From contig CAZYRI010000001.1 of the NCBI GenBank assembly GCA_964649575.1, positions 5,235-69,234 on the forward strand: a stretch of DNA of 64,000 nt, given 5' to 3'. The DNA comes from an uncultured Clostridium sp. (GTDB lineage: Bacteria; Bacillota_I; Bacilli_A; RF39; UBA660). A model generated the notes under the pieces. That model saw only the letters and a program-made list of their open reading frames with translations. It was not told where the DNA came from and ran no database searches. The translations under genes were made by a program, and so were the position numbers. Positions 813 through 57,219 of the stretch are shown one piece after another; position 1 is the stretch's first letter; every line of letters starts with the position of its first letter.

Positions 813-3338
813 TTAATTCTTCTTTAGTATTTCAAGTTTATGCTCTTCTTTTGCTAAATCTTCTCTTTCTTTATTAACAATAGCTTCTGGTGCTTTATTA
901 ACATAATTTTCATTTGATAGAAGTTTTTTTCTTCTTTCAATAGATGCTGTTAACTTAATTATTTCTTCTTCTATTTTTTGTTTTTCTTCTTCATTATTTT
1001 TAGAGTTATCAAAATATAAATCAAATTTATAATTATAAAGTTCAATAGTTAATAGATCTTTATATGTAGGATTCTCTACTATTTTGTCTTCTAATTTTAA
1101 CATTTTATTTAATAATATATTTTTATTATAATCAATTACTTCAATTTCATTTGAAATTTTATTTTCTAGTTTTTTGTTTCTAAATAATGTTACATATTCT
1201 AACATTTCATCTATTTCTTTTGTTTCAGTTTTAAATATTTGTTTTTTATTATATGTTGGATATTCACTTTGTAATAATAATTCTGTATCTTTTATTTCAA
1301 AATTACTATATATTTCTTCAGTAACAAATGGCATAAATGGATGTAACATTTTTATAATACAAGTTATTGTATAAAGAAGTGTGCTCTTAGCTCCATTTGT
1401 TTCACTAAACTTAGACATTTCTATATATTTATCACAGAAATTATCCCAAATAAATGAGTATAATTCACTACCTGCATTATTAAATTCATATTTATCCATT
1501 GATTTTGTTACAGAAGCAATAGTTTCATTTAATTTAGTAAGTATCCATCTATCAGCATTATCTATATTTTCTAAACTGTAATCTTCTTTTTTGAAATTTT
1601 CAAGTTTCATAAGTACGAATCTTGATGCATTCCATAATTTATTTATGAAATTCCAAGTTGATGCAACTTTTTCAGTATCAAATCTAATATCCATTCCCAT
1701 AGCAGATGTTGTTGTTAAATAGAATCTTAAAGCATCACATCCATATTTATCAATCATATCCATTGGATCTATTCCATTACCTAATGATTTAGACATTTTT
1801 CTTCCTTGTTTATCTCTAATTAATCCATGGATTATGCAATCTTTAAATGGTCTTTCATTCATTTGTTTTAATGATGAGAATGCCATTCTAGCTACCCAAA
1901 AGAATATAATATCATATGCTGTTACTAAAACATCTGTTGGAAAGTATCTTTCTAAATCTTCTGTTTTATTTGGCCAACCGAGTGTACTAAATGGCCATAA
2001 TGCACTACTAAACCATGTATCAAGAACATCATTGTCTTGTGTCCAACCTTCTCCTGGACACTCTACTTGTACTTTTACTTCGTCATCTTTATACCAAGCA
2101 GGAATTCTATGTCCCCACCATAGTTGTCTACTTATACACCAATCATGACAGTCTTCCATCCAATGATTTAATATCTTTTCAAATCTTTTTGGTATAAAAT
2201 GTATTTTTTTATCTTTTGATTTTTGAGCATTTAATAAGTCTTCACTCATACTTTTCATATCAACAAACCATTGTTTAGATAGATATGGTTCAACTACTGC
2301 ATGAGTTCTTTCAGAATGACCTACACTATGTGTCATTTTTTCTACACTAATAAGTAAGTCTTCTTTTTCTAAATCTTTTAACAACTCACTTCTACATTCT
2401 TCTCTTGTCATACCATTATATTTGCCAGTAAGTTCATTCATTGTTGCATCTTCATTCATGATGATAATTCTTTCTAAATTATGTCTATTACCTACTTCAA
2501 AATCATTAGGGTCATGAGCTGGTGTTATTTTAACACAGCCTGTTCCAAACTCTGGATCAGCATGTTCATCTCCAATGATTGGTATTAATTTGTTAACAAT
2601 TGGAAGTATAACATTTTTACCTATTAAATCTTTATATCTTTTATCTTCTGGATTAACTGCTACTGCGGTATCACCAAAAAGTGTTTCTGGTCTAGTAGTA
2701 GCTACATCTAAATAATCTTTTGTTCCTTCTATAAAATATTTTATATGATAAAATGCTCCTTCATCTTCTTCATAAATAACTTCTTCATTAGAAAGAGCTG
2801 TCTTTGCAACTGGATCCCAATTTATTATTTTTTCTCCCCTATAAATAAGTCCTTCATTATATAATTTTATAAATACTGAATTAACTGCATTATTTAATCC
2901 TGAATCTAATGTAAATCTTTCTTTTGTATAATCAACACAAAGTCCCATTGTTTCCCATTGTTTATGAATGTTACTTCTATGTTCATCAGTCCATTTCCAA
3001 CATTCTTTTAAGAATTCTTCTCTTCCAAGTTCATATTTATTTATTCCTTGCTCTTTTAATCTATTAACAACTTTTGCTTCTGTTGCGATTGCAGCATGAT
3101 CCATGCCAGGAAGCCACAATGTATCAAATCCTTTCATTTTTTTATATCTTATAATTGTATCTTGAATACTTGTATTAAGAGCATGTCCTAAATGAAGATT
3201 ACCTGTAACATTAGGTGGTGGGATTACTATTGTAAATGGTTCTTTGCTTTTATCCCCTGCTTCAAAAAGGTGACTTTTCATCCATGTATCATATTTACCA
3301 TTCTCTACTTCTTTATGGTTATATTTTTTATCTAACAT
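813..3338 (-). CDS. valS: valyl-tRNA synthetase
   Basis: Class I HIGH ([14 protein letters not shown]) and KMSKS motifs, 841 aa, C-terminal coiled coil. Confidence 0.95.
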
Positions 3339-4096: not shown

Positions 4097-4310
4097 AATA
4101 AAAAGGTAGAACCAAAGGACGAAATTTTCCGTGGTACCACCTTATTTAATACTCTATTTATTTAACGCATAATTACGCAACTTCTTACTTTATTCAGAAG
4201 TCAAACTCACAAGCTACCTTCATATATCTATCCTAAGAAAAGCTTTCAGCTAATAACTTTTCATCTCTAATAGTTAGTATATATTACTCCTCTTGGTCTT
4301 TGTTTTGTAT
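4097..4310 (-). promoter_or_regulatory. T-box riboswitch leader (valine) of HD-valS operon
   Basis: Minus-strand RNA carries AAGGUGGUACCACGG (T-box box) overlapping a terminator hairpin + U-run; stem I GA motif UAGAGAUGA; S-turn/specifier AGUAAGAA-GUU-G; promoter TTGACA(4340-4345)-17-TATAAT(4317-4322). Confidence 0.8.
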
Positions 4311-5067: not shown

Positions 5068-7181
5068 ACTCGTTTCACTTCCTTAACTTCATAAACTTCA
5101 ATAATATCTCTTTCTTTAATATCTGGGAATGATTCAATTGTCATACCACAGTCATAACCAGCTTTAACTTCTTTAACTTGGTCTTTTTCTCTTTGTAATG
5201 TTGCTACTTTTGATGATGTTACAACAATTCCATCTCTTATAACTCTACAAGGTGTATTAACTTTAACCAATCCATTTGTTACATGTGAACCTGCTATGTT
5301 ACCAACTTTAGAAAAATGGAATAATTGTCTTACTTCTGCTTCACCAATTACAACTTCTTCAAATTCTGGATCAAGCATACCTTTCATAGCACTTTCTATT
5401 TCTTCTACTAATTTATATATAATATTATAAAGTCTTATTTCAATTCCATAGCTTTTAGCTGTTTCTTTTGTTTGCTTACTTGGACTTACATTAAATCCAA
5501 TAATAATTGCATTAGATGCATTTGCTAAAACTACATCACTTTCTGTTATAGTTCCAACACCACTTCTAATAACATTTATTTTAACACCTTCAACCGTTAT
5601 TTTTAATAAAGCATTTTTAACCGCTTCTTCACTACCTTTAACATCAGTTTTTAAGATAATGTTTATTTCTTTTCTTCCTTCTTTAATTGAGTCAAATAAT
5701 TCCTCTAAACTTAATGCTTTTTTAGCAAATTTCTTACTCTTTTCATGTTCTTTTCTCTTCATAGCAACACTTCTTGCTTCTTTTTCACCTTCAAATGCCA
5801 TGAATTTATCGCCTGCTACTGGTACATCATCAAGCCCTGTTACTTCTACTGGTTTAGATGGTTCTGCTGATACCACTTCTTTTCCTGTATCATCTTTAAG
5901 TGTTCTTACTTTTCCATAATTTGTTCCAACAACGATTGGATCTCCTAATCTTAGTGTTCCATTTTGAATTAATAATGTTACAACTGGTCCTATATTCTTA
6001 TCAAGTCTTGCTTCAATAACAGAACCACTCGCATATCTATTTGGATTTGCCTTTAGATTTAATACTTCACTAAGTGCTGTAATATTATCAAGTAATAAGT
6101 CTACTCCTTCACCAGTTTGTGCACTTATACGAACAAATATTGTATCTCCACCCCATTCTTCTGGTGTTAATCCTAGTTCGCTTAGTTCACTCATTATCTT
6201 ATCAACATTTATATTTGGCTTATCTATTTTGTTAACAGCAACAATAATTGGTACACCTGCTGCTTTAGCATGGTCTATTGCTTCTCTTGTTTGAGGCATA
6301 ACTCCATCATCTGCTGCTACTATAATAATAACAATATCAGTTACAGCGGCACCTCTTGCTCTCATTTCTGTAAATGCTGCATGTCCAGGTGTATCAATAA
6401 ATGTTATTTTCTTACCATCTTTTTCTACTTGATATGCACCTATTGCTTGTGTTATACCACCTGCTTCTCCAGCCGCAACATGAGAATTACGAATATAATC
6501 TAATAATGTGGTTTTTCCATGATCAACATGTCCCATAATTGTTACAACTGCTGGTCTTCCTTCTAAATCACTTTCATTATCTTTAATTACATATTCTTCA
6601 AAATTAGTTATATCTGTTGTTTCTTCTTTTACAAGTTCCTTATTATATTCAAGAACTAATACTTCTGCATCTTCATATAAAATTGCTTGATTTGAAGATA
6701 TCATAAGTCCCATACTAATTAATTTTTTAACAACATCTGAAACTGGTACTTTAAGTTCATTTGCTAAGTCAGTAACACTCATACCCTCTTTATATAAAAC
6801 AACATTATTTTCTATTTCTTCTTTATTACTTTGAAGTTTTTGCTTGTTTTTATAAATATTTTTCTTTTTAAGTGATAAGTCTTCTTGTGCTTGTTTGTTA
6901 TCTTTTTTCTTGAATTTTTCTTTTACCTTAACTTGTTCATCTAATTCAATATTATATGCAAGTGCCGCTTCTTCTGCCCTATCTTCTAATTCAAATTTAT
7001 CTGCTAATTCTTCTGTTAAATTATTTTCTTCTTCCTTTGATAATTCATTATCTAACATAATAATAGCTTCATCATCTAATATATTTGTTTTATCAGAATA
7101 ACTATATCCCATCTTTTTAAGTGCAGTTATTACTTCCTCACTTGTTATACCTAATTCCAAAGCATAGTCTTCTATACTCAT
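5064..7181 (-). CDS. infB: translation initiation factor IF-2
   Basis: G-domain [21 protein letters not shown]; 705 aa. Confidence 0.95.
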
Positions 7182-8848: not shown

Positions 8849-8994
8849 TAAAATGCCTCCTTTCGTAAATAAAGAGTGGACTACCATGTCCACTCTCCTC
8901 TTGTCAACTGTATTATAGCATAATTAATTATATGTTACAAGAAAAACTTTATTAATTGATATGTTAATTTTTATTAATTTTTATTAATTTTCAA

Positions 8995-9044: not shown

Positions 9045-10907
9045 ATGAAAAATGAACTTGTTTTTAAGAGCTTAAACAGCGAAACTAAAGAGTATTTACT
9101 TGCTGTATATTCTATAATGGATTATTTAAATAATTGTAATCCTAGTATTCCTGTGACTAATAGTGATGGTGAAACCATTTATGTTTCAATCACTGAAGGA
9201 AATTATATAATTGGTCTTGCTTTTTTCTTAGCCGGTCTATATGTAGATGGACCTACAAAAGATTTTTTTAATTCTAGAGATATTACTTTTGAAAAATGTT
9301 TTAGTTATATTAATAGTGATAATACTAGTGAATTTAAATTAATTGATGATGATTTATTTAATAATGAAGCATTTAGTCTTATTAATTTAGGTAGTTATTT
9401 GGGTACTATTTCTAATCAAATAAAGGAAGACTATTATCTTACTGATAAAGATTTTTCTATTAATGATATTGAAGGTTATCAAATATTTGACTATTCTATG
9501 ATATTTTATACTGATGTAGTTAATGATTTAATGTATGAAATGTTTGGTATTGATGACTTTTTTAAAAGTGAACTATTTGATGATTATCAAGCAACTAGAG
9601 AAGGAATTTATTCTAGGATGGCTAAAGAAAAATATGATGTTGATATATTTGAAGCAAGAGATGAAATCATTTGGGAATTTGATTTTGATAGATTTAAATT
9701 AATATATGATAATGGCTATGCTTATTTGTTTACTCCTGATAAAAGTAATGTTGATGTTAAAGTCTTGGGTGAAGAAAATGAGTCTATTAATATTAATAGT
9801 GTTGAAATATTAAGAATAAATGGTAAAAGTATAGATTTTGATTATTTTGATAGTATTCTTTCATTAAATGATGATGATGTTATTGAACTTACTATACTTG
9901 ATAGTGAAGATAATGAAAGAATTTTTGCTACTAAAAAAGGAGAATTATTTAAAAAAGTGGAAGATATAAAAGAAACTAAAAGAAAAATCAATTTAGATAA
10001 ATATGGTGAAGAATTAACTAAACTTAATTATCTTAGTGATCCTAGTGTTGGTAGAGATGATGATATAAGAAGAATTGAACAAATTTTATTATATCCAGAA
10101 AGAGATAAAAGTATTATTATAACTGGTGAACCTGGTGTTGGTAAAACTGCTCTTGTAAGAGGGCTTGCTTATAGAATCAAAAATGGAAATGTACCATCTA
10201 AACTAAAGGGTATAAGAATATATAGTATTGATAATGCTACTATGGTTGCTGGTACTAAATATGTTGGTATGCTCGAAGAAAAAATGAAAAATATTCTTGA
10301 TGAAGTTAGTGAAGATAAAGATATAATATTGTTTATTGATGAAGTACATCAAATAATATCTGGTGGTGCTACTGAGAATAGTAATAACTCTGTTGCTGAA
10401 ATATTAAAACCATACTTAGATGTTGGAAAAGTTAGAATTATTGGTGCTACTACTACTGAAGATTATATGAACACTATAAGTAGTAATCCTGCTTTTAAAA
10501 CCAGATTTAAAAGAATTGATATAAAAGAACCTACTAATGATACTATGTATACAATTCTTGATAATTTAATTGATACATATAATGAAATTAGTGGTATAGT
10601 TCTTGATCCTGATTACACTAATAGAGCTAATATTATTAAGTCATTGCTTGATGTTACTAAAAAGTCTTGTAGAGATTACAAAGATCCTGCTAATAATCCA
10701 AGACTTGTTATTGATATTTTAAAAGAAGCTTATGCTATTGCAGCAATCAATGACAGAGACGAAGTTACAATTGATGATATTAAGCTTGCAGTTAGTGACG
10801 AAGAAAGAATTTATAAATCTGCTAGAGATAGATATTCTAATATTTATGATAAAGAAACTCAAAAGCCAAAAGGCATTGTTCTTGAATTTAAGCCTAAAAA
10901 ACATTAA
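9045..10907 (+). CDS. Clp/Hsp100-family AAA+ ATPase with a single D1-type nucleotide-binding domain fused to an unrecognised ~320-aa N-terminal domain
   Basis: GEPGVGKTALVRGLAYRI (Walker A, ClpB/ClpC D1 signature), LFIDEVHQI (Walker B), ILKPYLDVGKVRIIGATT (sensor 1), RFKRIDIKEP; no D2 module, no ClpP-docking loop. Confidence 0.75.
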   Translation: MKNELVFKSLNSETKEYLLAVYSIMDYLNNCNPSIPVTNSDGETIYVSITEGNYIIGLAFFLAGLYVDGPTKDFFNSRDITFEKCFSYINSDNTSEFKLIDDDLFNNEAFSLINLGSYLGTISNQIKEDYYLTDKDFSINDIEGYQIFDYSMIFYTDVVNDLMYEMFGIDDFFKSELFDDYQATREGIYSRMAKEKYDVDIFEARDEIIWEFDFDRFKLIYDNGYAYLFTPDKSNVDVKVLGEENESININSVEILRINGKSIDFDYFDSILSLNDDDVIELTILDSEDNERIFATKKGELFKKVEDIKETKRKINLDKYGEELTKLNYLSDPSVGRDDDIRRIEQILLYPERDKSIIITGEPGVGKTALVRGLAYRIKNGNVPSKLKGIRIYSIDNATMVAGTKYVGMLEEKMKNILDEVSEDKDIILFIDEVHQIISGGATENSNNSVAEILKPYLDVGKVRIIGATTTEDYMNTISSNPAFKTRFKRIDIKEPTNDTMYTILDNLIDTYNEISGIVLDPDYTNRANIIKSLLDVTKKSCRDYKDPANNPRLVIDILKEAYAIAAINDRDEVTIDDIKLAVSDEERIYKSARDRYSNIYDKETQKPKGIVLEFKPKKH

Positions 10908-10930
10908 ACAACTATCATAGTTGTTTTTTA
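10907..10930 (+). terminator. rho-independent terminator
   Basis: AACAACT-atcat-AGTTGTT followed by TTTT. Confidence 0.7.
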
Positions 10931-10959
10931 TTGACAAACGGTTGTTTGTTATTTATTAT
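10931..10959 (+). promoter_or_regulatory. consensus promoter of Y-family polymerase gene; probably leaderless transcript
   Basis: TTGACA-17-TATTAT; ATG 10968 lies ~8 nt after -10 with no SD; spacer contains AAACGGTTGTTT (degenerate Cheo-like palindrome). Confidence 0.55.
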
Positions 10960-10967
10960 ATAAATAT

Positions 10968-12209
10968 ATGAATGAAAGAAATATTATAAGTATTGATTTA
11001 AAAAGTTTTTTTGCATCGTGTGAATGTGTCCAAAGAGGACTAGATCCTTATAAAACCCCTCTTGTTGTAGCGGATACTGATAGAGGTGATAAAGCTATGT
11101 CTCTTGCTGTTTCACCTTATCTTAGAAACCAAGGTGTTAAATCTAGATGCAGAGTTTTTGAAATACCCAAAAATCTTAATATAATGTTTGTTAAACCAAG
11201 AATTAAACTATATCAAGAATATAGTAAAAAAGTATTTGATATATATAGAAGTTTTATAAGTGATGAGGATATTCATTTTTATTCTATTGATGAAGTATTT
11301 ATGGATGTTACTGACTATCTAAAATATTATAAAAAAACTGATATTGAGCTTGCATTATTAATTATGAAAACAGTGTATGAAAAAACAGGGCTTACTACTA
11401 CTGCTGGTATTGGTCCAAATATATTACTTGCTAAAATAGCTATGGATGTTGAGGCAAAACATAATAGAAATTGTTTATCTAAATGGACATATAAAGATGT
11501 AGAATCCAAACTTTGGAATATAACTCCTCTTACTAAGATTTGGGGAATTGGAAAAAATACTGAAAAAAAGCTTAATAATTTGGGTATATATAAAGTTGGT
11601 GATATTAATAAATATTCAAGAAATTTTTATATAAAAAGATTTGGTAATGTTATGGGGAATGATATTTTTGATAAAGCTAATGGTATATACTTTCCAACTA
11701 TTAAAGAATTAAATTCAAGAGTTAAAGAAAAATCAATGAGTATGAGTCAAATATTATATAGAGATTATAGTATTGACGAAGCTATACTTATTATTAAAGA
11801 AATGAACGATATGTTAAATGTTCAGCTTAAAGAAAAGAAATTAACCACTAAACTTATTCATTTATCAGTTTCGTATTCAAGAGATTTATATAAAGGATTT
11901 AATGATACGACTTTATTAAATACTGTTGAAGATAACGGTGAAAAGATATTTGATACTCTTAAGTATATGTATTATAAAAATATTGAAGATTTGCCTATTA
12001 GAAAAGTTGGTATTGCCTATTCTAAACTTACTGATAAAGGTGCTACACAGCTTAGTTTATTTGATAAAAATGAAGTACCAACTGATGAATATAATAAAAT
12101 AATTGATAAGATTACTTCTAAATATGGAAACACTTCTATATTAAGAGCTTCTTCCCTTCTTAAATCATCTACAATTAAAAATAGAGAAAGATATAAAAAT
12201 ACTATTTAA
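10968..12209 (+). CDS. Y-family (DinB/UmuC-like) translesion DNA polymerase
   Basis: N-terminal SIDLKSFFASCE...VVADTDRG motif typical of Y-family polymerases; 413 aa. Confidence 0.8.
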   Translation: MNERNIISIDLKSFFASCECVQRGLDPYKTPLVVADTDRGDKAMSLAVSPYLRNQGVKSRCRVFEIPKNLNIMFVKPRIKLYQEYSKKVFDIYRSFISDEDIHFYSIDEVFMDVTDYLKYYKKTDIELALLIMKTVYEKTGLTTTAGIGPNILLAKIAMDVEAKHNRNCLSKWTYKDVESKLWNITPLTKIWGIGKNTEKKLNNLGIYKVGDINKYSRNFYIKRFGNVMGNDIFDKANGIYFPTIKELNSRVKEKSMSMSQILYRDYSIDEAILIIKEMNDMLNVQLKEKKLTTKLIHLSVSYSRDLYKGFNDTTLLNTVEDNGEKIFDTLKYMYYKNIEDLPIRKVGIAYSKLTDKGATQLSLFDKNEVPTDEYNKIIDKITSKYGNTSILRASSLLKSSTIKNRERYKNTI

Positions 12210-20817: not shown

Positions 20818-20904
20818 GCAAGAATGGCGGAATTGGTAGACGCAGCAGACTCAAAATCTGCCGGTAGCAGTACCTTGTGGGTTCGACTCCCATTTCTTGC
20901 ACCA
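20818..20904 (+). tRNA. tRNA-Leu (anticodon CAA)
   Basis: GCAAGAA acceptor/TTCTTGC-A-CCA, anticodon loop CUCAAAA, long variable arm, 87 nt. Confidence 0.9.
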
Positions 20905-25560: not shown

Positions 25561-25911
25561 TTAATTTTTAACCTTAAATAATAAGCTTATAATAAATGAT
25601 ATTACTATTGTATAACTCATACCAGCAGATGAATTTACAAGTACTCCTTTAAATAAACCAACAAACCCATTACTTAGATATCCTTCACAAGCACCTGTTA
25701 CAAGTAAATGTCCAAAATTTATAATTGGAATACTTGCCCCAGCATGAAATATTTTTAATATAACATCATATATTCCAAATCCAGATAAAATACAACCTAT
25801 AATAACTAATAAAGTATTCATGTGACCAGGTGTCCATTTTGTTTTCTCAAGTACAAATTGTGATATAGCACACACTATTCCACAAAATAAAAATGATAAA
25901 ATATAATTCAC
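25561..25911 (-). CDS. spoVAEB: stage V sporulation protein AEb
   Basis: 116-aa membrane protein, SpoVAC/AEb family, downstream of spoVAD. Confidence 0.8.
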   Translation of the reverse strand: MNYILSFLFCGIVCAISQFVLEKTKWTPGHMNTLLVIIGCILSGFGIYDVILKIFHAGASIPIINFGHLLVTGACEGYLSNGFVGLFKGVLVNSSAGMSYTIVISFIISLLFKVKN

Positions 25912-26885
25912 TATTTCACCTCCACACTTACTGCATGGCTAATTCCTGGCATTTCTAATTTTAAATTAGAACTTAGAACTGAATGAAGTGACCCTGTCGC
26001 AATTAATAATATCTTTTTATATTTATTTTGTTTTAATACATAGTCAAAAAATATTATTGGTAAACATAATGGTCCACTTGCTCCAGCATAAATAATATCA
26101 TCTGTGTAATATATACTTCCTGAATCTATTATTTTTTTATTACTAATATCTATCTTATATTTCTTTTTATAATATTCTTTCATTATTTTTAATCCATATA
26201 TTCCAAGATCTCCAGTTAATACTAAATCATAATAATCAATTGTTCTATTAGTATCTTTTAAGTGATTATATAAGGTTTCAGCACAAGATGGTGCCATTGC
26301 ACTTCCCATATCATTAGCATCAGTATGACCCATTGTTATTACTTTTCCAATTGTTGATGATTCAATTTTAATATTTGACTCTTTATTTGATATTAATACA
26401 CTTATACTACCAGTAGATGTACTTGTGTTGACCATTTTTCTAACCGCACCATATTCAACTGGAAATCTAAATTGTTTTTCGCTTACTAAATTATGAGATG
26501 AAACTGTTATTATTGCATTCTTGTTTTTATTATTGATAAATTCACATCCAATTAGTAATCCTTCTACAAAGGAAGCACAGGCACTATATATTCCAAGATA
26601 TGAAACATTAAATTTAAAAGCTGCTAAAGTTGAAGCTAAATTTTGATTTTGTAAGTCTGATGATATTAATAAATTTATATTCTTTGATTTAATCTTACTC
26701 TTTTTTAATAATCCGTCAATTGTTATTTCTTGATATTTAGCTTCTGCAAGTTCAATAGTTTTTTCTTTTATATAATAATCATTTATACAATTATCAACTG
26801 TATTTTTAACAATAGGATTATATTTAGTTGATGCTAAAAGTGAATATTTATTATTTATATATACATTATTATAGTAATTTGTCAT
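25911..26885 (-). CDS. spoVAD: stage V sporulation protein AD
   Basis: thiolase/KAS-like fold protein 324 aa in spoVA operon. Confidence 0.8.
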   Translation of the reverse strand: MTNYYNNVYINNKYSLLASTKYNPIVKNTVDNCINDYYIKEKTIELAEAKYQEITIDGLLKKSKIKSKNINLLISSDLQNQNLASTLAAFKFNVSYLGIYSACASFVEGLLIGCEFINNKNKNAIITVSSHNLVSEKQFRFPVEYGAVRKMVNTSTSTGSISVLISNKESNIKIESSTIGKVITMGHTDANDMGSAMAPSCAETLYNHLKDTNRTIDYYDLVLTGDLGIYGLKIMKEYYKKKYKIDISNKKIIDSGSIYYTDDIIYAGASGPLCLPIIFFDYVLKQNKYKKILLIATGSLHSVLSSNLKLEMPGISHAVSVEVK

Positions 26886-27316
26886 AGTATTATACTCCTT
26901 ATATATCCGAATATTACTCCAAATATTACTCCATATAAGATTATGCTCCCTGCAAGTTTAAATATATTTGCCCCTATTCCTTTAATAAATCCTTCTCTTC
27001 TTGTATCCATTGCACTACTTGTCATTGTATTAGCAAAGCCGCTTGCTGGCACTATAAGACCACATTTTACGATACTAAGAATTTTATCAAATATTCCAAA
27101 TCCTGTTAATACTGCTCCGATTGTTACAAATGTAATAAATGTCATTAGATATGCATCACTTATATTTAAATTAAACCATCCTATATAATAATTAGTTATA
27201 AGTTCTGCAAATAAACCTGCTACTCCACCACTAAAAAATGCTATTAGAATATTTTTATTAGGGTTTTCTTTTTGAATATTTTTTTCAACTATTTTTTTAT
27301 ATTCTTTTTTATTCAT
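26882..27316 (-). CDS. spoVAC: stage V sporulation protein AC
   Basis: 144-aa 4-TM protein with FFSGGVAGLFAEL motif. Confidence 0.8.
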   Translation of the reverse strand: MNKKEYKKIVEKNIQKENPNKNILIAFFSGGVAGLFAELITNYYIGWFNLNISDAYLMTFITFVTIGAVLTGFGIFDKILSIVKCGLIVPASGFANTMTSSAMDTRREGFIKGIGANIFKLAGSIILYGVIFGVIFGYIRSIIL

Positions 27317-27438: not shown

Positions 27439-27514
27439 TGGTGACCCATAAGGGATTTGAACCCTTGAATGTCGCCTTGAGAGGGCGATGTGTTAACCAT
27501 TTCACCAATGGGCC
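27439..27514 (-). tRNA. tRNA-Glu (anticodon CUC)
   Basis: 76 nt; GGCCCAU acceptor, D-loop AAUGGUUA, anticodon loop CUCUCAA, T-loop UUCAAAU, ends GGGUCACCA like B. subtilis tRNA-Glu. Confidence 0.85.
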
Positions 27515-34702: not shown

Positions 34703-34910
34703 TTTTCCTCCTAAATAAAAAGATGATACACAAAGGACGACTATTGCCGTGGTACCACCTTATTTTATAGTTAAACTATCTCATTTACTTAACGCGTATA
34801 AACGGTATCTCTAAAAAAGCAAGTTCAACACATTTTATTATTAGTTTACATCAGCCACTAACTTTCTATAAATAAATATGTATTTACTACTCTTTTCATC
34901 ACTGAAATAT
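34703..34910 (-). promoter_or_regulatory. T-box riboswitch leader (leucine)
   Basis: AAGGUGGUACCACGG box (34747-34759) + terminator; GA motif CAGUGAUGAAAAGAG; specifier GAA-CUU-G; promoter TTGAAT-17-TATAAT(34917-34922) overlapping 3' end of GH31 gene. Confidence 0.8.
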
Positions 34911-34922
34911 GGCTTAATTATA

Positions 34923-55074: not shown

Positions 55075-56370
55075 TTATCCTATTCGGAAGCCTGGAGCCA
55101 CACCGTTCCTATCGTAAGCATAGGAGCTATATTGGAAGTAGCCATAATAGTGTACAGCTAAGAAACCGAGATTATAAGTAGAACTGGCGGAGCGGAGCCA
55201 CCATCTCGAAGCACTAGTGCCGTTCAACTTTACAGCACCACTATAGTTAGAAGTTGTTACTCCTATTTTTTTATAATAATCTAATTGTCTTGTTGTTCCT
55301 ATTGAAGTGTCATATGATTTATAACTATTAGTTTCAGTATCTTCCCATACTTCTTCTGGTGAAAACAAATATAATTTATCTATGCTTACAAAGTTTCCAT
55401 CTTCTCGTTCCTCATTTTCAACTATCATGTTTCCATAACTTGATACTACTGTTGTATCTATTATTCCATTCTTTAATTCTGTTGGTAGTGCATTATATAT
55501 TTCATTATTTACAAATGTTCTCATTGTTGTATTTGGCCATCCACCTACATTATATCCATAATTATAAGTTGTTCCATTATATTCTCCTGCTGGGTTCATT
55601 TGATGTGATGTTATTATGTCTGCAAATTCAAGCACGAATCCACATGCTGTTTGTGAAAAACCAGCTGTATTACATTCATCTGGTGTAGATGTATTTGCTA
55701 TTCTTAAGGTATGTGTCCCATATTCTCCTAAGTCTACTTCTTTTGTATCTCCAACTGTATAATCACTTCCATTACCTGCTTTTACATTTGCTACAATATC
55801 TGACCATGAATCTGTTGCGAAGTTAGGTTTTTTATATTCTTCTATACCTAACATTCCATTAAACTTTTTACCTTGATTATAGTTTTGTATTTCTCCTGTT
55901 TCTTTAAATGTAAATGTGAAAGTATATTTATGTGTTATTCCACTTTCTATTGTTATATTTGATTTTACTCTATTTGGTCCAATTACTGTTTCTTCTATTC
56001 CTTCACATGTTCCTTCTTCTACATCTCCATTTAATCTTTTACATGTTGCACTTATTAACATTTCATCATTTATTATTTCATTTGTTAATTCTTGCCAAAT
56101 GATGTTATATTCAGTTTCTAATGTACCAGTGTTTTCTACTGTTACTTCTTTTGTTATTGATCCCCCTGGTTTAATATTTTCCATTACTATTTCTTTTGAA
56201 TCAGTATATGTTAGTTTTAATGTTCCTGCTTCTACTACCATATCTTTACTATCATTATTTCCACTTATACTTGAACTAAAGTATGCATAAGAAAATCCTA
56301 TTACTGCTAGTAATAAAAATGCTATTATTGTTCCATATAATATTCTTTTATCTTTCATATATTCACTCAT
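55075..56370 (-). CDS. secreted TasA/camelysin (M73)-like protein with SipW-type signal peptide and extra C-terminal domain
   Basis: AYFSS signal-peptide motif after TM, N-domain aligns to TasA (AGTLKL..., ENIKPGGSITKEVTVENTG); 431 aa. Confidence 0.65.
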   Translation of the reverse strand: MSEYMKDKRILYGTIIAFLLLAVIGFSYAYFSSSISGNNDSKDMVVEAGTLKLTYTDSKEIVMENIKPGGSITKEVTVENTGTLETEYNIIWQELTNEIINDEMLISATCKRLNGDVEEGTCEGIEETVIGPNRVKSNITIESGITHKYTFTFTFKETGEIQNYNQGKKFNGMLGIEEYKKPNFATDSWSDIVANVKAGNGSDYTVGDTKEVDLGEYGTHTLRIANTSTPDECNTAGFSQTACGFVLEFADIITSHQMNPAGEYNGTTYNYGYNVGGWPNTTMRTFVNNEIYNALPTELKNGIIDTTVVSSYGNMIVENEEREDGNFVSIDKLYLFSPEEVWEDTETNSYKSYDTSIGTTRQLDYYKKIGVTTSNYSGAVKLNGTSASRWWLRSASSTYNLGFLAVHYYGYFQYSSYAYDRNGVAPGFRIG

Positions 56371-56400
56371 CCTTTACTATTATTTATAATAGCATATTTA

Positions 56401-56455
56401 CCCCCCCGACAAGCGAACAAGTGTTCTTTTTATAGATATTCATTATAGATATTCA
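56401..56455 (-). promoter_or_regulatory. promoter region of TasA-like gene: Cheo/LexA-type box, G7 tract, 13-bp tandem repeat
   Basis: cGAACAAGTGTTCt at 56414-56426; CCCCCCC (G7 on coding strand) 56401-56407 between TTGTCG and TATTAT (15-bp spacing); tTATAGATATTCA x2 at 56430-56455. Confidence 0.45.
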
Positions 56456-56535
56456 AAATAATTTATATAAAAATTGTAATTTTTTTGCAAATTTATAACA
56501 TCAAAAAAGTAAGTTTTCACTTACTAATTTCTATT

Positions 56536-57219
56536 TTATTGTCCAACTGATGCTTGTGGAGCTTGTGGTGTTTCACTAGCTGGTGGCACTGGTACAGTTG
56601 GTGCTTCTGCTACTGTTGGTGCAGGTACAGATGGTGTTTCACCTATACTTGGTGTCTCTCCAATGCTTGGAGTTTCACCTATGCTTGGTGTTTCCATAGT
56701 TGTAGGTGCTGGACCAACTGATGGTGATTGGGGAGTTGTTGGAGCCGTTACTTCTGGTGCAACAGTTTGTGGTTCTTCAATCACCAATGTAGGTTGTTCA
56801 ACAGCAGGTGTCGCTGGAGTTGCTGCAGGTGTATTAAATATACTTTCAACTGGAGCTTCAGCAGGTGCTGTTGGTTGTACTGGGGTTTCTGTAACTGGTG
56901 CAACTGGAGAAACTGGTACTGATGTATTTATGTTAACATCAGTTGCTGTTGCTTCTAATCCACTTAAACTTGGCTCTTGTGTAGCAACTGCTGGTGCAGG
57001 TGCTGGAGTAACTGTCTCAGCTTGTGGTGCAGTATTTGCAGTTACTGCTGCTGGCACTGGTTGTGGTGGAACATTAGTCGCAGGAACCACCTCAGCATTC
57101 TTTTGTTTTTTCTTTTTACCATCTACAATAAATCCTATTAAAGCAAATAATAATATTACCGCTACAATCATAAAGATTAAGTAATTATCTGCTAAAAAAT
57201 TCAATACTTTGTCCATCAT
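56536..57219 (-). CDS. membrane-anchored Pro/Thr/Ala/Val-rich low-complexity protein with PSIGET tandem repeats
   Basis: N-terminal TM + KKKKQK, then TPSIGETPSIGETPSIGE encoded by 18-bp DNA repeats (56636-56689). Confidence 0.6.
   Translation of the reverse strand: MMDKVLNFLADNYLIFMIVAVILLFALIGFIVDGKKKKQKNAEVVPATNVPPQPVPAAVTANTAPQAETVTPAPAPAVATQEPSLSGLEATATDVNINTSVPVSPVAPVTETPVQPTAPAEAPVESIFNTPAATPATPAVEQPTLVIEEPQTVAPEVTAPTTPQSPSVGPAPTTMETPSIGETPSIGETPSIGETPSVPAPTVAEAPTVPVPPASETPQAPQASVGQ

Follow-up and report, generated by a model that had tools for sequence, protein, structure and literature searches.

Phase variation that acts through the spacer of a promoter has so far been described mainly in pathogens of the genera Neisseria, Haemophilus and Mycoplasma. 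In the porA, opc and fetA genes of Neisseria meningitidis, a poly-G or poly-C tract in the spacer sets the distance between -35 and -10 and so gives graded or ON/OFF expression. Here we analysed a 64,000-nucleotide stretch of DNA (the window) from an uncultured Clostridium sp. of the RF39 lineage of Bacilli (GenBank assembly GCA_964649575.1, contig CAZYRI010000001.1, positions 5,235 to 69,234), and in particular the promoter of a minus-strand gene for a secreted protein with a TasA-like N-terminal domain, in which a run of seven G stands between a -35-like and a -10 hexamer behind a LexA-type dyad. Bacilli of the RF39 type are frequent inhabitants of the human gut; their genomes are small, and none of them has ever been grown in culture. 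The neisserial tracts vary widely in length between isolates, whereas the relatives of the window promoter mostly have one length; the window lineage also belongs to a different phylum, and a LexA-type box is present.

In layout the locus is also close to Mycoplasma hyorhinis's Vlp system, which has a poly(A) tract in every vlp promoter, and to the Vmm system of M. mycoides, which has TA repeats in the spacer (PMC10502178). A surface multigene family with near-identical promoter and signal-peptide cassettes, a slippage-prone repeat between -35 and -10, and an AT-rich host with a small genome and a relationship to the Mollicutes are common ground. The window tract, however, is poly-G in DNA of 26% GC and not poly-A, the proteins have a SipW-type signal and a TasA fold and are not lipoproteins, and the promoter also carries an operator dyad and an extended -10; the class of cassettes with eight G (G8) looks length-stable. 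For the sortase-dependent pili of Bifidobacterium breve, one report describes poly-G replication slippage as an ON/OFF switch of the pilus clusters (PMC9187656). The likeness is that of a gut commensal varying a surface fibre through a G-tract. The B. breve tract probably lies within a coding sequence and acts by frameshift, whereas the window tract lies in the promoter spacer.

The protein resembles TasA of Bacillus subtilis and CalY of B. cereus in its signal motif, its match to PF12389 and its fold match to 8aur, but only about the first 80 residues match the profile and a lectin-like C-terminal module of 250 amino acids is extra; in addition, no sipW neighbour was found, and nothing about the window gene points to SinR or AbrB as its regulator. 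It also resembles the targets of diversity-generating retroelements (DGRs), such as Mtd of the Bordetella phage and the 'tentaclins' of gut phages, in its DUF6273 domain and in a hypervariable, adenine-depleted extreme C-terminus, although the window gene is chromosomal and not on a phage. The dyad recalls the LexA regulons of clostridia and Bacillus, in which GAAC-N4-GTTC/T adjoins the promoter (PMC4234289), but it fronts surface-protein genes instead of repair genes, and the lexA operator of the lineage is degenerate. A study of Clostridium difficile reports that LexA affects biofilm and surface phenotypes in that species (PMC4689574).

We favour the explanation, with a probability of roughly 0.45, that a selected poly-G/LexA-type promoter cassette, inducible and tuned by slippage, drives the expression of TasA-fold, lectin-tipped surface proteins. 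The cassette is family-specific and consists of a RAAC-N4-GTTY dyad, 2 nucleotides (nt), a weak -35 (TTGnn), the G-tract, the sequence TRTGnTATNNT, a conserved 5′ untranslated region (5′UTR) and the start of an MKDK signal peptide, and it recurs, copied almost base for base, before many paralogues, whose transcription it would drive. The product is best explained as a secreted surface or adhesin-type protein of RF39-like gut Bacilli with 26% GC, built of a signal of the SipW type, a domain with the TasA fold that forms a stalk or fibre, and a DUF6273 tip resembling C-type lectins.

All upstream elements named in the original prediction were found on the minus strand. In 5′ to 3′ order along the coding strand, the upstream region holds a hairpin, two copies of TGAATATCTATAA, GAACACTTGTTC, the dinucleotide gc, TTGTC followed by G7, TAAATATGC, and TATTAT. 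The LexA-type (Cheo) dyad GAACACTTGTTC (56415..56426) ends 2 nt upstream of the -35-like TTG. It is the sole GAAC-N4-GTTC in the 64-kb window (expected number 0.17), but at least one such site was found in 14 of 100 shuffles, so a single dyad in the window is not significant alone. Its plus-strand reading, CGAACAAGTGTTCT, agrees with CGAACRNRYGTTYC at 13 of 14 positions and with the right spacing, which bears out the claimed match to the Firmicutes LexA consensus. The -35-like hexamer TTGTCG (56407..56412, minus strand) has 3 of 6 positions in common with TTGACA and stands 15 nt from the -10 hexamer TATTAT (56386..56391), with the spacer GGGGGGTAAATATGC between them. The G7 homopolymer (56401..56407, minus strand) is the only G/C run of at least 6 in the whole window, which has 25.8% GC. 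The predicted run, its rarity and the 15-nt spacer were all correct, and so was the arithmetic that G8 or G9 would give a spacer of 16 or 17 nt; only the string TTGTCG-GGGGGGG, in which the prediction wrote out the run, counts one G twice. What had been overlooked is an extended -10, since TATGc stands directly 5′ of the hexamer (56386..56396 together, minus strand). The TRTGn motif is the extended -10 or -16 motif of Gram-positive bacteria and lessens the dependence of a promoter on its -35 and on spacer length.

Further upstream, the 13-bp tandem duplication of TGAATATCTATAA (56430..56455) is exact, as had been claimed, with two 100% identical copies and a TATAAT in the first. It is, however, one of about seven comparable perfect two-copy repeats in the window and has no counterpart in any relative compared, so we rejected it as a regulatory element, and its mention as a notable part of the promoter did not hold. 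The hairpin AGTAAGT-GAAA-ACTTACT, followed by a T run (about 56503..56525, minus strand), was read directly from the sequence; it was missed by the terminator scan, having too few G-C pairs in its stem. It lies 3′ of the stop of the upstream gene (56536) and resembles a terminator, which separates the gene from its upstream neighbour, and the gene therefore needs a promoter of its own. Motifs for SigB, extracytoplasmic-function and sporulation sigma factors, the SinR inverted repeat GTTCTYT and the Spo0A box were also compared with the cassette by eye and were rejected for misfits of spacing or orientation.

The relatives that we compared come from uncultured human-gut metagenome-assembled genomes (MAGs) labelled Bacilli, Mollicutes, Mycoplasmatota or 'Clostridium sp. 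CAG:524 / CAG:1000'; their GC content of 24-30% fits RF39-like Bacilli, and each genome has several to about 10 paralogues of the gene. The window promoter architecture recurred in register upstream of the relatives, in at least 13 promoters. In the alignment of 13 promoters, the upstream flanks were unrelated and conservation set in precisely with the dyad's left half-site, continuing through GCTTG, seven invariant G columns, ATGCTAT, the 5′UTR and the MKDK codons. The dyad RAAC-N4-GTTY was kept in 12 of these 13 paralogous promoters, the exception being L090 with GAGC, and several cassette copies had AAAC as the left half-site. About 0.88 Mb of related AT-rich DNA contained 15 distinct G/C runs of at least 6, and 13 of them were within a spacer between a TTG (-35) and a TATNNT (-10), 11 flagged by script and two (L026 and L102) added by eye. 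Perfect GAAC-N4-GTTC sites were similarly placed: in 725 kb scanned, at loci chosen around the TasA-fold gene family and hardly covering repair genes, there were nine distinct ones, six within the cassette and two a short way upstream of different promoters in the family. Nine more AT-rich promoters came from a metagenome scan in which the flanks were given and the gap between them was left free (TGTTYGCTTG-N5-24-TATGCTATWMTWA).

Two homologues, P0003 and P0084 (several contigs each), have promoters without poly-G, and the cassette was absent from the lexA-adjacent loci of further strains looked up. In L102 (about 6340..6400, minus strand), a G6 run lies in the 19-nt spacer of TTGACT-AAAAGGGGGGTGCAAGTGC-TATAAT in front of a gene for a 546-amino-acid LRR_5 / N_methyl protein (pilin-like signal), inserted beside lexA in one strain only, which shows that poly-G promoters also occur outside the TasA-fold family. 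The scan pattern also matched TGTTCGCTTG-G9-AG-TATGCTATAAT in L051 (1661..1693; Ga0099364_10001259), an unrelated GC-rich contig with 54% GC, which could be a separate case of a poly-G promoter spacer in a different lineage, or a chance match. Several metagenome contigs break in the cassette or beside a PDDEXK_2 transposase-like gene (L052, L075 and L076 end there; L110-L114 and L118 start there), as expected of repeated elements, which break assemblies.

Three related loci have lost the gene behind the cassette. In L053, L072 and L078 there is no start codon, and only the end of the reading frame (...YGVSSAFRLG*) is left. Compared with the orthologous cassette of L052, a contig that ends just after its -10 so that the comparison excludes its gene, these loci had eight differences over 200 nt, and five of the eight fell within the 20 nt of dyad, TTGC (-35) and G-tract, all five of them GC-to-AT. 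The remnant (L053 5700..5830, also in L072 and L078, against L052 10250..10332) adjoins a PAP2-lexA operon, and there the flanks are nearly identical while the G8 has decayed. The decay of the cassette where the gene was lost means that dyad and G-tract are held by selection as long as the gene is in use. Judged by these comparisons, selection acts in this AT-rich lineage on the cassette, its dyad and its G-tract, and the cassette is conserved across paralogues and species, so dyad and G-tract are no chance features.

A functionless chance combination of the three upstream elements has a next to negligible probability. It could account for a dyad as such (at least one in 14% of shuffles) and for short two-copy repeats, which are common in the window, but not for the in-register recurrence of dyad, TTG, G-tract and extended -10 across 13 or more independent promoters, nor for the decay of dyad and tract with the gene; it is already contradicted for these two elements and is the best reading for the 13-bp repeat. 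We also consider it very unlikely that transcription starts further upstream, at the alternative sigma-70-like promoter TTTATA-18-TATAAT in the repeat (56442..56471, minus strand), and that dyad and G-tract belong to a 5′ leader which controls translation through base pairs with the ribosome-binding site. The upstream promoter does score 10/12 in the promoter scan, and the window RNA (56340..56445, minus strand) pairs the GUUCGCUUGUC region with the Shine-Dalgarno region at -17.3 kcal/mol (z=-2.6), but upstream promoter and repeat are absent from all relatives, and 13 sequences had no conserved structure or covariation (consensus -1.7 kcal/mol, 0 compensatory pairs). There was no Rfam match either, and with a window fold that has no counterpart in relatives, an RNA leader or riboswitch was rejected. 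As for the dyad, LexA is widespread in related MAGs (for example in the 'Clostridium sp. CAG:1000' and 'Tenericutes' records), and the LexA of the lineage, conserved in full length with LexA_DNA_bind and Peptidase_S24 domains, is 51% identical to a hand-typed query for that of B. subtilis. The dyad is a textbook Firmicute LexA dyad by its spacing and its 13 of 14 consensus positions, and the GAAC..GTTT variants of the cassette fit as well, because the clostridial SOS boxes of lexA, recA and ruvC are GAAC-N4-GTTT or GTTC (PMC4234289). Several observations weigh on the other side. The lexA promoter of the CAG-1000 group has no good GAAC-N4-GTTC, only the degenerate CAATCATTTGTTTG between -35 and -10 (10 of 14 positions), and since this box is degenerate, LexA binding at the dyad is something that we infer; lexA is not in the 64-kb window; the AAA-ATPase / Y-family polymerase operon of the window has no Cheo-like box; eight of the nine perfect sites in 725 kb are in or beside promoters of this gene family and not at repair genes, although the loci were sampled around that family and repair genes hardly at all; and the left half-site AAAC of several copies differs from the canonical GAAC. 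These observations would be explained by an operator for another regulator (an XRE/SinR-like or a family-specific repressor, for example) with no link to the SOS response, an alternative that we take seriously but find rather doubtful. LexA is the best candidate for the binder of the dyad, and a LexA dimer there, 2 nt from the -35-like TTG, would exclude region 4 of sigma.

Whether the G-tract is a switch was judged from its lengths, and here assemblies report the majority tract length only. Tract and spacer lengths differ among members of the family, from G5 to G13 and, for the distance from TTG to -10, from 15 to 20 nt. In L038 and L041, tracts of G12 and G13 give spacers of 19 and 20 nt, both between perfect TTGACA and TATAAT hexamers, whereas L036 and L124/L125, the last two being orthologues of L041 by position, since they too lie downstream of that tRNA, have the interrupted GAGGGAGTGGGACCTT and a spacer of exactly 17 nt. 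L022, L023, L026, L027 and L028 also keep 17 nt; their tracts are either interrupted or a pure G10. Paralogues differ by G7 vs G8 and by G12 vs G13, and one clean difference of a single G was seen between L001 (TTGC+G7) and the consensus (TTGC+G8). Pure long tracts with off-optimal spacers beside interrupted ones with 17 nt are the pattern that switches and their locked derivatives would give. It is nevertheless possible, if in our view unlikely, that the G-rich spacer is a fixed cis-element of constant length, such as a regulator site or a structural feature, and that the paralogues differ by ordinary divergence. Several observations favour such an element or speak against slippage: in the closest subfamily of the window, the tract is G8 and the spacer 16 nt long in 10 of 13 promoters; both members of the orthologue pairs L029/L061, L057/L085 and L074/L075 have G8; the 15-nt spacer of the window results from a T missing in the A/T part (TAAATATGC vs TAATTTATGC) and not from the G run; and the extended -10 (TRTGn) makes the -35 and spacer length less critical. 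Moreover, interrupted yet G-rich spacers (GGGAAGGGGG, GGGGTGGGGG, GAGGGAGTGGGA, GGGCGGTGGG) are kept, so G-richness itself may be selected, and the interrupted one of L119-L123 is identical across five samples despite its spacing of 19 nt. The entire cassette including the 5′UTR is also nearly invariant, the G's not being singled out. On the other side, G-richness needs no purity of the homopolymer, and pure tracts were found from G7 to G13; to our knowledge, no Firmicute regulator recognises a G-homopolymer. Because of the near-fixed G8, the equal lengths in orthologue pairs and the extended -10, high-frequency phase variation is plausible but unproven for the window promoter. The phase-variation architecture that had been claimed is present in its layout, a homopolymer in the spacer, but the length of the tract is nearly fixed at G8 in the subfamily, which in part fulfils the invariance that the original prediction named as refuting it.

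The exact window promoter, with exact flanks and a variable gap, had no match in metagenome contigs, and no close strain of the genome was found in the collections searched; the database protein identical to the window protein, P0001, is a singleton cluster whose relative P0002 is 78% identical. A real strain-level difference in homopolymer length was seen at another promoter of the family, in L047 and L048 (about 2950..2975), where the homologue P0003 is identical and the poly-T between the terminator hairpin and the TGTTATATAAT promoter is T10 in one and T9 in the other.

Under the favoured explanation of a selected, inducible and slippage-tuned cassette, the dyad would be an operator that blocks the -35 region, and with LexA as the likeliest binder the gene would be inducible by DNA damage. 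The G-tract may have been retained as the promoter's one slippage-prone sequence, and gain or loss of a G would shift the distance from TTG to -10 (15 nt here, 16 nt modal, 17 nt optimal) and thereby tune or switch expression; this would be a contingency locus comparable to Vlp or porA. For the window promoter, with its G7 and extended -10, a graded, low-frequency effect would be likelier than a sharp ON/OFF switch. As far as the cassette can be interpreted, it looks like a stress-linked, possibly switchable control of surface proteins.

The coding sequence of the window gene is 55075..56358 (minus strand; 427 amino acids), starting at the second ATG. The mechanical open reading frame (ORF), 55075..56370, has the 431 codons that had been claimed, but its first ATG falls within the Shine-Dalgarno-like AAAGGATGAG (56366..56375, minus strand, read from the sequence; a similar taaaggatggtaga is present in relatives). 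The 427-amino-acid form (MKDKR...) is identical to P0001 and the MKDK start is common to all homologues, so the start was placed at 56358. The signal peptide MKDKRILYGTIIAFLLLAVIGFSYA followed by YFSS (56284..56358, minus strand) ends in ...GFSYAYFSS and fits the SipW-type motif A-[YF]-F-[SND]; S23, Y24, A25 and F27 were invariant in the alignment of 44 homologues.

The TasA-like beta-sandwich domain comprises about residues 41-174 of the 427-amino-acid form (55837..56238, minus strand) and is indicated by Pfam, by an AlphaFold2 model and by a PDB fold match. Peptidase_M73 (PF12389; TasA/camelysin) matched residues 8-87 with 49.8 bits (cut-off 22.5), although only in part (profile positions 4-79, which is 76 of 196). 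The AlphaFold2 model, built on the 44 homologues, had a mean confidence score (pLDDT) of 67, with about 80-90 in the N-terminal beta-sandwich and 30-55 in the C-terminal domain, and its top PDB fold match was the TasA fibre 8aur_A (E=6.6e-5, probability 1.0), with low TM-scores because the model is multi-domain. A PDB profile search likewise matched only the TasA entries 5of1 and 8aur, at E of about 0.004. TIGR04090 (BsaA) matched in part (E=2.6e-6, 27.3 bits against a 60-bit cut-off), and NF046066 (the TasA equivalog) scored 21.5 against a cut-off of 450 bits. By these scores, the window protein is a distant relative of TasA and not an orthologue of TasA or BsaA. The SipW-type signal peptide and the TasA-like N-domain of the original prediction were thus borne out by the AYFSS motif, PF12389 and the 8aur match.

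The C-terminal domain, which had been noted as extra, was identified by the Pfam comparison as DUF6273 (PF19789; 55081..55578, minus strand; residues 265-430, 55.1 bits, cut-off 23.5). Since the AlphaFold2 confidence is low in this part, the lectin fold is assigned from the Pfam match and from the literature, in which DUF6273 is a C-lectin-like domain and a frequent DGR target with a C-terminal variable region (PMC10743442; bioRxiv 10.1101/2024.10.15.618418). The paralogues have the signal peptide and the TasA-fold N-domain in common and differ in the C-terminal module, which is either DUF6273 or a long array of DUF285/BspA-type repeats (PF03382); such arrays replace DUF6273 behind the poly-G promoters of L028, L029, L036, L038 and L041 (P0241-P0255). 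One TasA-fold N-domain with swapped lectin-like or BspA modules points to surface adhesins, and 'biofilm-matrix fibre', the label given to the gene before, is too narrow for such a modular family. No S24/S26 peptidase was found among the ORFs of the window, in agreement with the claim that no sipW is nearby, and no SGSMxP motif was found in about 0.7 Mb of related loci; no tapA-like domain turned up in the window scans, no search having been aimed at tapA. The family is one of modular secreted or surface proteins, which sets it apart from TasA orthologues that belong to a sipW-tapA operon.

At the 3′ end of the gene, the final 42 codons (55075..55203, minus strand; WWLRS...GVAPGFRIG*) resemble the variable region of a DGR target, being depleted of adenine and enriched in GC. 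Only 24% of synonymous third positions there are A, compared with 75% elsewhere in the gene (p=7e-7), and a shift of the same kind reached p<0.05 in 11 of 15 other homologues tested. The C-terminus, with the last 40 residues or so, was the sole hypervariable block in the 44-sequence alignment, and its GC content was 0.40-0.50 against about 0.28, in a genome of 26% GC. Searching the window and the ±6 kb that flank its homologues by blastn gave no DGR template repeat; the window ORFs contained no reverse transcriptase motif or domain, nor was a reverse transcriptase found in the same flanks. There were no relatives in viral contigs. Two pairs of close strains had no excess divergence in the variable region, the identities being 96.1% in the body and 96.9% in the variable region for L008/L009, and 90.8% and 97.7% for L001/L061. 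The C-terminus thus has what looks like a DGR-target signature.

A more far-reaching reading, which we regard as distinctly unlikely as a whole, combines all of this into one layered system of RF39-like gut bacteria. A SOS/poly-G cassette would couple derepression by LexA with slippage of the spacer poly-G, the C-terminal modules (DUF6273 lectin, DUF285/BspA repeats) would be exchangeable, and the lectin tip would be subject to hypervariation of the DGR type. If this reading is true, no Firmicute commensal before these would have had a contingency regulon that resembles Vlp of Mycoplasma and is coupled to the DNA-damage response. The favoured explanation, if confirmed, would by itself extend promoter-spacer phase variation to a major commensal lineage and link it to the SOS response; if switching is refuted, the G-tract is an unexplained conserved promoter element and of interest as such. 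One conserved module stands before the genes of a whole family whose secreted products are TasA-fold, lectin-like and BspA-like proteins, and the hypothesis can be addressed in existing metagenomic reads.

The other genes of the window are housekeeping genes, including many tRNA synthetases, infB-nusA, spoVA, gatCAB and a Y-family polymerase. The upstream neighbour of the TasA-fold gene (56536..57219, minus strand) encodes a single-pass membrane protein of 227 amino acids with a Pro/Thr/Ala-rich tail and no Pfam family, in which ETPSIG is repeated four times (18-nt DNA repeats, 56632..56694). The plus-strand region 9045..12209 contains an AAA-ATPase gene and then the gene of the Y-family (IMS) DNA polymerase, and upstream of it there is a perfect repeat of TTAATTTTTA in 2.8 copies (8964..8991). 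Two T-box leaders are on the minus strand (4112..4309 and 34730..34911), the second upstream of a DUF3169-like ORF and a leucyl-tRNA synthetase gene, and two tRNA genes are at 20818..20901 (plus strand) and 27442..27514 (minus strand). The spoVAC-spoVAD-spoVAEB operon (25561..27316, minus strand) suggests present or recent spore formation in this lineage of small genomes.

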